NCBI GenBank assembly: GCA_964016885.1
Contig: OZ024743.1
Span: forward strand, 217,744,001-217,808,000
Direction: 5' to 3'
Origin: Eledone cirrhosa
Lineage: Eukaryota
Length of the DNA stretch: 64,000 nt
A program made the position numbers and the translations under genes. Under the pieces are notes generated by a model that had not been told where the DNA came from, searched no databases, and was given only the letters and a program-made list of their open reading frames with translations. Shown in pieces: positions 1,341 through 48,725 of this stretch (positions within the stretch are counted from its first letter, which is position 1; the number at the start of each line of letters is the position of its first letter).

Positions 1341-2180
1341 TACTCCCACACACATAACACCCATACACACACATAACAACCCCCACCCCCTGACACACAC
1401 ACCTCCCTCCCCCATTTCTACTAATAGAATCACTTTCCTACACACATATATACACACACACAAAATATATATATTCTCTCCATCTTAACATACTCCCCCC
1501 CCCCCACATACACACACAACTCCCTCCCCCATTTCTTCCAATACACACACACAAACACACACACACACACAAACACACACACACACAAGCACACAAATAA
1601 ACATACACATATTTCTTTACTTTCTTTACTTCAATAGAAAATCTGAATTCTGACATCCCAACGAACTAACCATATTCACTGAACCAGAACAATTCTCCCA
1701 TCCCATTTCTCTTGACCATTATCTTTTGCTTGTCATAAAATTCTCTAAAAAGGCTAAAGAATAGATTTCCAAATAAGGGCGCGAAAATTTAATGAAAACT
1801 TGTTCACGTGACAGCCGTAATTTCATTTATAACCAATCAAATTACGTTTATTAAAAAAAAGCCTTCGTGAGCCCCCTTTTTTTAAAGTAAAAAGAAATTC
1901 AAACACTCATACATGAAAACACAACCTGTGCCCCCTCCCCCCTTGTTTGAAGAACTTTGTAACGCAAACTGGCGCGAAATTTATTTTAATTATTGACCAA
2001 CCAATCAAATTACTTCTCTAAAAAACTGGCATTTCGAGCCACTTTTTTCCATATAAAACAAGTAACATTCGGAGACCAACCAGATGTGAGAAAAACCACA
2101 GACGCTCCATCTCAACTCTACTTTTGAAAAGCAGAAGAACTGCGAAACCGGTAAAGCAACGAAATAAATATATATATTTT
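1340..2180 (+). mobile_element. 3' UTR/pLTR of a Neptune/Nematis-like PLE (same family as 34810-35750, opposite orientation)
   Basis: Reverse-complement match over about 800 bp to 34810-35750, e.g. ttcaatagaaaatctgaa, aaataagggcgc, gcagaagaactgcgaaaccggta. Ends in a (TA)-rich tract. Confidence 0.85.
2121..2156 (+). ncRNA. Minimal type-I hammerhead ribozyme, family A (UUGAAAA core)
   Basis: ctt-TTGAAAA-gcag aagaa ctgc-GAAA-ccgg-TA-aag: stem I ctt/aag, perfect 4-bp stem II, palindromic stem III ACCGGT. Confidence 0.7.
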
Positions 2181-2239
2181 TGTTAAGATAAGACTACAGT
2201 TGCATTTTCGATTTCATCTATTTTAGTTTATATATATAT

Positions 2240-2390
2240 TGCTGGTACTCATTTTCAGCTGAGCATACTGGCGCAACGTGAAATGAGGTGTTTTGCTCAA
2301 GAACACAACAATCAACCCTCCCTGGAATTGAACGCACGGCGTTATGATCATATGTCTATCACCCTTACCACTAGGCTACAAGCCTCCACT
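2240..2390 (-). mobile_element. Old tRNA-derived SINE (CORE-like), degenerate
   Basis: aaatgaggtgttttgctcaagaacacaac (CORE-like box), ggaattgaac (B-box complement), accactaggcta (A-box complement). Confidence 0.6.
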
Positions 2391-2511
2391 GCAACAGAGC
2401 AGATGTCACTAAAGTCATCTAAATGACAGGTGGTTGTGTGAAACCGGATGAGCTGTCTCTATATGTGTCACATCTTTCAATACATAAAGAATAGCATTAT
2501 TTCAAAAGCCA

Positions 2512-2656
2512 CGCTTTACAGCATAGTTATGGCCCTTTACTTCTGATTTCAAATCTCGCCGAGGTTAATTTTGCCGTTCATCCATACGCTGTCGATAAAG
2601 TAAAGTACCAGTAATGCACTGGGATAATTGCTGGCCTTGTGCCAAAAGTAGAAAAA
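2512..2656 (+). mobile_element. tRNA-derived SINE (Nin/Deu-like central domain), 5'-truncated, with 16-bp TSD
   Basis: Matches the 46581-46766 copy. Direct repeat attatttcaaaagcca at 2496-2511 and 2657-2672. Confidence 0.85.
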
Positions 2657-46928: not shown

Positions 46929-47395
46929 ACTGGTAATTTATTGTATGTCAGCTCAACAGTATGGAGCAGTTATTAGTATTAAGGATACTATTTATGGTTA
47001 TGTATATACTAAAACTTTTTATAGTTATATATATTTTAAACCCTAAACAGTGAAAGACAGTAATTTATTACTACCTTATTACCAGTAAGATAAATAGCTC
47101 AATGTAATAACATCAGTTGTTCTACAGAGCAGTTATATAGAAATCACATGAATCAAAGTTCTGTTCAAACCATTTAACATATATATGTATATATATATAT
47201 ACGAGAGAAAGGAAAATCAGTGCGGCTCAGTACCCTCTACATGTAAATATCTTGGGGCCGCGTTCAAAAGTGTTGGAAGTCAATAGATTGTGTTAAGTGC
47301 AAGAAATCCAGGAATTGGTAGAGTAAGGCGCCAACTTTAGCATTCAGTAATCAAAAGAAGGGCGGTTGTTGTAAATATATATATATATATATATA

Positions 47396-47890
47396 TGAAA
47401 GCTGCCCCCTCGTTATCGAGTATGGCCATTGCACGATCGTGCAATGCTTGTGCGTGAAGATATTTTTTAAAGTGAGGAAAGATTGTGCACTGAGCCAATC
47501 CCACTCTCTGAGCGACAGTAGCTATAACCCGAAAAGAAGAGAAAATCAACATCATCGGTAACTACTGAGCCGCAGGTTCTATATCGGAGTTATCCCAGTT
47601 TACTGAGTTGCATTCTCCTAGAAAATGCCCTGACAAAGACTAGGGGTCCTTACTCCCAGTGGTTTAACCGCGTGGTACATGTGTATATACATATTTACAC
47701 ACTTTCGGATGGCCGTTGACTCTTATGAGTTCTTCCGCCCTTTGTCAGGTTTTGCTTGAGGGTGACCAAAATCACCCTCCCCACCAAATTGATGGAGTTG
47801 CCGGGTTAATCGCCGACGACCCGACGACCCGACCATGCGACAGGTTGTACTGGGTTACATGTTACCAGTAGCACTCAAGAGTGACCCGAC
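47396..47890 (-). mobile_element. Second copy of the 23068-23594 repeat
   Basis: End-to-end similarity, flanked by (TA)n. Confidence 0.78.
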
Positions 47891-47934
47891 ATATATATAT
47901 ATATATATGTGTGTGTGTGTGTGTGTGTGTATAT

Positions 47935-48725
47935 ATATAAATGAGCGGAACAAGCAAACATTAAACAATCTTTTAAATAAATTAAAATACGATTTAAATA
48001 TTCACCTGTTCTAGTGCTGTGATCGACGGTTTTGCTTATCAAAAGATTGGAAATTCAGAGAATTTCCAATGGAAAGAATCAGCTCTTCCAAACTACGAGA
48101 CATAAAGCCTCGTAGTTAGTAAATATATCGCTTTCTGTCCGGTGCATGAGGTCAGGCCGTTAAAGTGATCCACACACAAATAGGCCGTAAGAAAAAGCGG
48201 GAATTATAGACATGTTGGTATTTCATGTTACTAGAAATAGCAGCACCATACAACATTTTTTCTCTACATAGAAGGAGAATACATATAAATGATATAAATA
48301 ATCCAGTAGGTACTAAGTACCCCCGGAAATATACATGGTGGCTATAACAGTTGTTATTCAATGGTACTAATTTGAGATACCAGAACTATAAAAATGAGCG
48401 GAACAAGCAAACATTAAACAATCTTTTAAATAAATTAAAATACGACTTAAATATTCACCTGTTCTAGTGGTGTTACCGACGGTTTCGCTTATCAAAAGAT
48501 TGGAAATTCAGAGAATTTCCAATGGGAAGAATCAGTTCTTCAGACAGCTATTTCCAAACCACGAGGCATAACGTCTCGTAGTTAGTAAATATATCGCTTT
48601 CTGTCGGGTGCATGAGGTCAGGCCGTTAAAGTGACCCACACATAAATAGGCCGTAAGGAAAAGCAGGAATTATAGACTTGTTGATATTTCATGTTACTAG
48701 AAATAGCAGCACCATACAACATTAT
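47935..48725 (-). mobile_element. Hammerhead-carrying tandem repeat family G (period 453 nt, about 1.7 units)
   Basis: atgagcggaacaagcaaacattaaacaatc at 47941 and 48394. Hammerhead at 48469-48548 on minus: gctgt-CTGAAGA-actgat..attggaaattc tct gaatttccaat..ataagc-GAAA-ccgtcgg-TA-aca. The first unit has a 13-bp deletion in the core. Confidence 0.85.

Follow-up and report, generated by a model that had tools for sequence, protein, structure and literature searches.

Type-I hammerhead folds at Penelope-like element ends and in short non-coding tandem units next to (TA)n in the Eledone cirrhosa genome

An initial annotation of a 64,000-nt stretch of the Eledone cirrhosa genome (assembly GCA_964016885.1; contig OZ024743.1, positions 217,744,001 to 217,808,000; hereafter, the window) listed about 18 hammerhead motifs within 47 kb, which raises the question of whether this locus is a hotspot of its own or a sample of a genome-wide system. 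Our answer, held with high confidence, is that several families of Penelope-like elements (PLEs) carry type-I hammerhead folds at their 3' ends, and that such folds also occur in at least four non-coding tandem units (463–591 nt), which are likely mobilised by a PLE RT-endonuclease into (TA)n throughout the genome. As a whole, the system belongs to a kind already published, and several of the listed copies are decayed. The transposition mode of PLEs, the role of their hammerheads, and the movement of animal retrozymes are treated as open in the work cited below.

Hammerhead motifs in the window and in the genome

All 18 motifs of the initial annotation were found at their assigned places. A strict type-I descriptor (CUGANGA or UUGANAA core, GAAA, UH, stems I and II, and a palindromic stem III) gave 11 matches in the window, compared with a mean of 0.03 (maximum, 1) in 30 block-wise (local) dinucleotide shuffles; an earlier version had given 9 matches versus 0.15 in shuffled sequence. 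Ten of the 11 are among the listed motifs (two of family A, two of family B, 34039 and 34505 of family C, and 17483, 21290, 21496, and 32703 of family D), and the eleventh is a family I motif at 40679 (-) missing from that list. Eight of the listed motifs fail the strict descriptor, being U4C variants or weak-stem or decayed copies of real families. Two have a U4C core (family F, with the true core CCGAAGA at 40825, and family D at 29905), and both were caught by a relaxed scan (2 matches in the window versus 0.25 in shuffled sequence). Cores are broken in three (C at 6587 and 8084, G8U; E at 29485, G12U); G at 48469 has decayed, although the stems are perfect in other copies of its family, E at 28986 combines an intact core with a non-palindromic stem III, and stem I of the family H motif has only 2 bp. 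Weak features (U4C, a mismatched 10.1–11.1 pair, or a 2-bp stem I) recur in several families. Further decayed hammerhead copies at 40391–40430 (+), 18505–18545 (-), and 33603–33660 (+) have kin in the genome sample or in the pattern list.

The fold was also examined in a non-circular design, in which matches were selected by the core word only and the stems were not used. Among 40 such matches in 600 kb of random genome, stem III was palindromic in 20 and stem I was present as well in 18, compared with 2/80 and 0/80 in 10 shuffles and 0/8 in the reversed control. In an alignment of 13 D-type motifs the core is kept, 94.5% of the cells are paired, and 10 of 21 pairs show double changes, although this pairing arises partly by construction, the descriptor having supplied 11 of the 13 motifs, and a shuffle control can be exceeded by sequences that are related. 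At one locus (L331), two copies of one D-type motif carry C3-G8 and U3-A8, respectively, a double core change within the family. No Rfam hammerhead model reached its gathering score, and the best 150 of 229 rows of the Rfam E-value list held no hammerhead, the listed matches being microsatellite-driven miRNA artefacts; minimum-energy folding of single motifs did not yield the full hammerhead fold. Judged from their sequences, the window motifs are real minimal type-I hammerhead folds, whose cleavage is predicted.

Strict matches numbered 39 in 60 random 10-kb pieces (taken from 20 large contigs, roughly weighted by length), versus 0–1 in shuffles, which extrapolates to ~190,000 motifs in the 3.0-Gb assembly (bootstrap, 105,000–300,000). 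Together with the flanking 200 kb (11 matches) and four fixed 50-kb blocks (3, 1, 0, and 6), the samples outside the window gave 60 strict matches in 1.0 Mb, predicting ~1–3 x 10^5 genome-wide. When one sub-class, with a C3-G8 core, a short stem II, and a stem III interior of 6 nt, was counted exactly over the whole genome, 238,214 matches were returned versus 45,383 for the reversed pattern, so that at the pass rate of 18/40 this class alone would hold ~107,000 structured motifs. The 50 strict matches of sample and window fell into 21 clusters, 13 of them singletons. Two abundant hammerhead-like families (L074, L094, L128, and others) with a 2-bp stem II or a bulged stem III escape the strict descriptor, and the load estimate is therefore probably low. 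Both the random pieces and the pattern count support the very large load extrapolated earlier, whereas the term hotspot proved to be overstated: the motifs represent a genome-wide state, of which the window is only a moderately rich patch.

Two simpler readings were weighed against these data. That repetitive, AT-rich DNA would yield such motifs by chance might be argued from the AU-rich stems of family D and from the Rfam result, but the shuffle, reversed-pattern, and covariation controls refute it, and we give it practically no weight. That some local cause, such as chromatin or an unusually TA-rich region, makes the window a hotspot in its own right is improbable. The window has ~172 strict matches/Mb versus 60/Mb elsewhere, ~2.6-fold above average, with a bootstrap P of about 0.04 in which 10-kb blocks are treated as independent and the variance is understated; its 11 matches in 64 kb also compare with 11 in the flanking 200 kb. 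However, the counts are overdispersed (variance/mean, 2.5), the window was chosen for its hammerhead feature, other 10-kb pieces reach 4–6 matches (one random piece has six), and TA tracts are sparser in the window (11.7 per 10 kb) than in the sample (mean, 23.2).

Published counts, from sources accessible in part and with descriptors that differ between studies, are 126,247 hammerhead motifs in axolotl (PMC7229834; genome, 28.21 Gb, bioRxiv 2026.07.22.740005), >6,000 in 16 families in a coral (PMC7229834), and ~9,000 in Xenopus tropicalis (PMC4209133). For giant squid, 235 Rfam hammerheads are listed (PMC6962438), and the words "ribozyme" and "hammerhead" are absent from the main text of PMC13282606. 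Our literature search, which lay mostly outside subscription papers and supplements that could hold counts, found no cephalopod hammerhead load of this size. A load of ~10^5 or more, as predicted, would reclassify a sizeable share of the short unannotated repeats in such genomes.

Parent elements of the motif families

Table 1. Hammerhead motifs and their carrier elements in the window
Feature	Position	Strand	Remark
Family A minimal hammerhead, U3-A8, stem III ACCGGT	2121..2156	+	PLE 3' end, GIY-YIG domain
Family B, 5'-truncated piece of 591-nt unit	6216..6527	-	Short 3' end on (TA)n
Family C subfamily hammerhead, G8U broken core	6587..6629	+	Motif check
Family C subfamily hammerhead, G8U broken core	8084..8126	+	Motif check
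D-type hammerhead, subfamily	17483..17535	-	Strict match
Diverged B-type hammerhead, compensatory stem I and stem III (ACTGCGCAGT)	17833..17928	-	Strict match
Family H motif, U3-A8, ACCGGT, 2-bp stem I	20895..20945	+	Repeat ends ~200 nt downstream on (TA)n
Head-to-head family D insertion	21157..21600	.	Minus arm long tail (21290), plus arm short end (21496)
Head-to-head family E insertion, non-coding unit ~540 nt	28816..29827	.	Minus arm short end (28986), plus arm long end (29485)
D-type hammerhead, U4C core	29905..29967	-	Relaxed scan
D-type hammerhead	32703..32767	+	Strict match
Family C, two tandem ~470-nt non-coding units	33870..34800	+	Hammerheads 34039, 34505, stem III ACTAGT
Family A hammerhead	34847..34884	-	3' UTR extends to endonuclease remnant 36176-36670
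Decayed C-terminal ORF remnant of family A PLE, CxxxxCxxC linker before GIY-YIG	36176..36670	-	In L036, L038, L048, L049 the same peptide precedes A motifs
Family I hammerhead, stem III ACCACTGGT	40627..40686	-	Strict match; absent from earlier list
Full-length but decayed family F PLE	40740..47176	-	Short 3' end on (TA)n
Family G, ~1.7 copies of 463-nt non-coding tandem unit	47934..48740	-	Decayed hammerheads 48469, ~48010

Families A, D, and F are the 3' ends of PLEs: in keeping with the PLE termini inferred in the initial annotation, they led back to elements carrying RT and/or GIY-YIG ORFs, and they show a terminal repeat with a hammerhead, a tail at one end, and an inverted 5' copy (Table 1). 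A single ORF with RT and, at its C terminus, a GIY-YIG domain was read directly in family F, whose relatives are 27–38% identical, and as remnants in D and A. The family F element has a 5' tail copy at 47176–46974, a broken RT and GIY-YIG ORF with an intact stretch at 46000–44285, a 3' UTR interrupted at 41023–43012, and a U4C hammerhead at 40785–40830; its 5' end repeats the post-hammerhead tail, starting 6 nt past the predicted cleavage site (one case). A Pfam scan of this ORF returned no family and the names of its homologues were uninformative; the RT and GIY-YIG labels are those that we take its motifs to indicate. An RT-thumb/linker ORF, 32% identical to the F ORF, lies upstream of the family D motif at L017/L018, and a GIY-YIG remnant with the cysteine linker precedes the family A motif in 5 of 20 loci (L036, L038, L040, L048, and L049). 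From their motifs, we take the family A PLE to be of a Neptune-like clade and families D and F to be Nematis-like. Family I, with a long upstream region and one suggestive locus (L311) with an adjacent PLE ORF, is probably also a PLE end, and a search for a parent ORF of family H found none.

Other features accompany these elements in the window. A broken PLE-type RT fragment at 150–1417 (-) abuts a family A 3' UTR, and the ~2-kb insertion at 41023–43012 within the family F 3' UTR contains broken ORFs with no Pfam match, presumably resembling a DNA-transposon protein. The interval 49300–60500 (-) is taken up by a tandem pair of decayed, GC-rich LINEs, in which endonuclease-like frames and RT frames (RVT_1 match) are seen and of which each lies beside (GATA)n, and long (CTA)n and (TAG)n tracts are arranged in inverted fashion around a (TA)n tract at 11080–11530.

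Families B, C, E, and G consist of tandem units that lack ORFs and that carry a type-I hammerhead in each unit, as non-LTR retrozymes do. They are likely mobilised by PLEs and would correspond to the ribozyme-bearing parasites supposed earlier. The whole-unit ORF test covered family B, in which the longest stop-free frame is 86 aa. The family B hammerhead at 6295–6384 (-) has a U3-A8 core and stem III ACTACGTAGT, and one 22-mer of this family has 7,496 exact copies genome-wide (control, 0), found by an exact pattern, whereas a DNA similarity search returned 0 candidates. Tandem arrays reach five copies, and they are dispersed and variably 5'-truncated. None of these four families could be matched to an autonomous partner, and a sequencing-run search with the B monomer gave no RNA dataset among the six matches listed. 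The family C unit has an internal (TA)n tract of variable length; TA/TG microsatellite tracts lie inside this unit and the elements at L309 and L320, and such elements may consequently add to the microsatellite content and create new targets.

Junctions with (TA)n and a possible mechanism

The initial annotation placed all motifs in repeats abutting (TA)n. The 3' ends do join (TA)n, and nine of the 11 strict matches in the window have a (TA)5+ tract within 200 nt downstream of the cleavage site (null mean, 1.9), as do 26 of 39 in the genome sample (null, 9.0). The 3' ends are fixed at two distances from the cleavage site: +80 (34/73) and +245–247 (32/73) in B, +87/+191 in G, +178/+266 in E, and +266/+326 in C, and TA repeats follow in 67/73, 35/44, 39/48, and 20/21, respectively. 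Families D, F, I, and A likewise have one long and one short 3' end. Among 60 head-to-head retrozyme pairs (one of them duplicated within L232), 47 were long+short, none was long+long or short+short, and 13 had an unclassifiable arm; among 31 pairs of PLE ends (D, F, I, and A), 25 were long+short, five unclassified, and one short+short by regex, this last one, of family F, being long+short on inspection. Rather than being random copies, the loci represent the top BLAST matches or, in the case of B, the exact matches listed first on one contig, and overlapping loci, segments of <85% identity or under the length cut-off, and, for C, TA-only matches were dropped. The ends sit on 3–6 nt TA-type words; a choice of ends by the best TA microhomology was rejected, as longer TA words within the units are unused. 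A repeat search of the window, with output dominated by simple repeats, made the D and E inverted pairs visible. Since all 47 classifiable retrozyme pairs carry this "tail" signature of PLEs, the short units are likely PLE-mobilised, and the ORFs, the ORF-less units, and the (TA)n junctions together uphold the earlier proposal of one system in which PLE termini and ribozyme-bearing parasites target (TA)n. In a literature search covering few subscription papers and no supplements, we found neither twin priming in PLEs nor a long/short rule on retrozymes.

In a possible mechanism, the GIY-YIG domain would cut both strands of (TA)n, and the RT, probably dimeric, would bind the "tail" between the two ends and prime one target strand per tail boundary; the two cDNAs, joined head-to-head, would then give an inverted insertion with the tail at one end. 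Two RT start sites are reported to bound the tail, with a dimer predicted (PMC11167929). In the accessible part of the same study no strand difference in the start site was seen for PAc in vitro, which does not favour the assignment of one strand per site. Given the palindromic stem III, cleavage would require two copies to pair, and it would cut multimers to monomers, which could be circularised. The 5' ends are scattered, and copying went past the hammerhead in 36 of 42 cases in B, 7 of 10 in G, 9 of 9 in E, and 7 of 7 in C; this prevalent read-through makes a multimer or a circle of RNA the likely template. At the cleavage site, 5' ends are in weak excess in B (6/63 versus 2.1 expected; p of 0.02 or 0.11 depending on the counting interval) and number 3/42, 0/40, and 0/21 in G, E, and C, respectively.

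The same read-through could also mean that the elements are as described but that their hammerheads are mostly non-cleaving, serving as a protein-binding or RNA-dimerisation fold, with uncleaved read-through multimers as templates. We consider this unlikely, though the strongest of the alternatives. The U4C core of the young family F agrees with it, as do the accessible parts of published work: insertion in vitro is unaffected by catalytic mutants (PMC11167929), and 8 of 9 Xenopus dimers were uncleaved (bioRxiv 2026.07.22.740005). Poor cleavage by PLE hammerheads in vitro (PMC4209133) and insertion in vitro independent of cleavage (PMC11167929) also weigh against the main reading. A circular template, however, also predicts read-through, and changes in stem II are compensated while the catalytic core hardly varies; the start of the single full-length F copy just past the predicted cleavage site and the small B excess also argue for cleavage. 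A different view, along a scenario discussed in bioRxiv 2026.07.22.740005, would see in B, C, E, and G no separate parasite class but solo terminal repeats of PLEs that unequal crossing-over has multiplied locally into satellites. Arrays of up to five copies do exist, but their dispersal, variable 5' truncation, two fixed ends on (TA)n, and adherence to the long+short inversion rule are marks of fresh reverse-transcription events, and the tails of B, C, E, and G re-enter their own unit, whereas the F tail runs into the ORF; local amplification is accordingly very improbable.

Returning to PLE-driven mobilisation, we put forward a fuller version only tentatively, as somewhat less probable than its negation: that this is the largest hammerhead load among those that we found reported (~2 x 10^5, ~60/Mb, at least 20 families), that the units are circular-RNA parasites of PLEs, and that the long/short rule is the footprint left in the genome by a dimeric PLE enzyme that primes both strands of a cut (TA)n target at two fixed sites of the RNA. 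The units, which are young, nearly identical, and protein-free, number in the thousands and have two fixed priming sites; they would offer compact substrates for tests of PLE priming and of hammerhead function, for which the strict long/short rule would provide a genomic read-out that can be counted.

Comparison with known systems

Published precedents exist for minimal hammerheads in PLEs, for U3-A8 cores, for (TA)n targeting, and for retrozymes; our searches found none for the load or for the insertion signature on retrozymes. The comparisons below refer to the parts of the cited sources that were accessible. Minimal hammerheads in terminal repeats of metazoan PLEs were described with U3-A8 cores, low activity, a dimer logic, and the proposal of a circular template (PMC4209133). 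Shared with them are the type-I topology, the short palindromic helix III, the U3-A8 variant, and the occurrence of many heterogeneous families, mostly as single truncated copies, with opposite-strand pairs 100–700 bp apart. The scale differs, with thousands per genome there and ~10^5 or more predicted here, and a U4C core is fixed in the young family F here.

Non-LTR retrozymes were defined in PMC7229834 and have been linked to PLE repeats by homology, with the mechanism left open (bioRxiv 2026.07.22.740005). B, C, E, and G share with them (PMC7229834; bioRxiv 10.64898/2026.07.22.740005) the non-coding tandem units with one type-I hammerhead each, the low GC, the range from monomers to multimers, and a proposed PLE dependence, and in family C the base of stem II is a U-U pair, as it is in axolotl HHR_Amex2. 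The units are 463–591 nt here versus ~170–400 nt (PMC7229834) or 51–972 bp (bioRxiv 10.64898/2026.07.22.740005). Unlike published retrozymes, those of E. cirrhosa, known from genomic DNA alone, have palindromic or U3-A8 hammerheads, resembling the minimal type of PLEs, and they exhibit the two-ended tail, the inversion rule, and the (TA)n targeting of PLEs, for which we found no description on retrozymes in these sources.

For PLEs themselves, targeting of (TA)n has been documented together with inverted copies and a tail on one end (PMC8557442). Compared with Neptune/Nematis (PMC8557442) and PAc (PMC11167929), the elements described here have in common the C-terminal GIY-YIG domain with a cysteine linker, 5' truncation, the inverted 5' copy, the one-ended tail, (TA)n or AT-rich targets, and two RT starts downstream of the hammerhead. 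They differ in that the tails are ~60–165 nt rather than 30–40 bp, that the ends lie on short TA-type words, and that the one-long-one-short rule has been counted across eight families.
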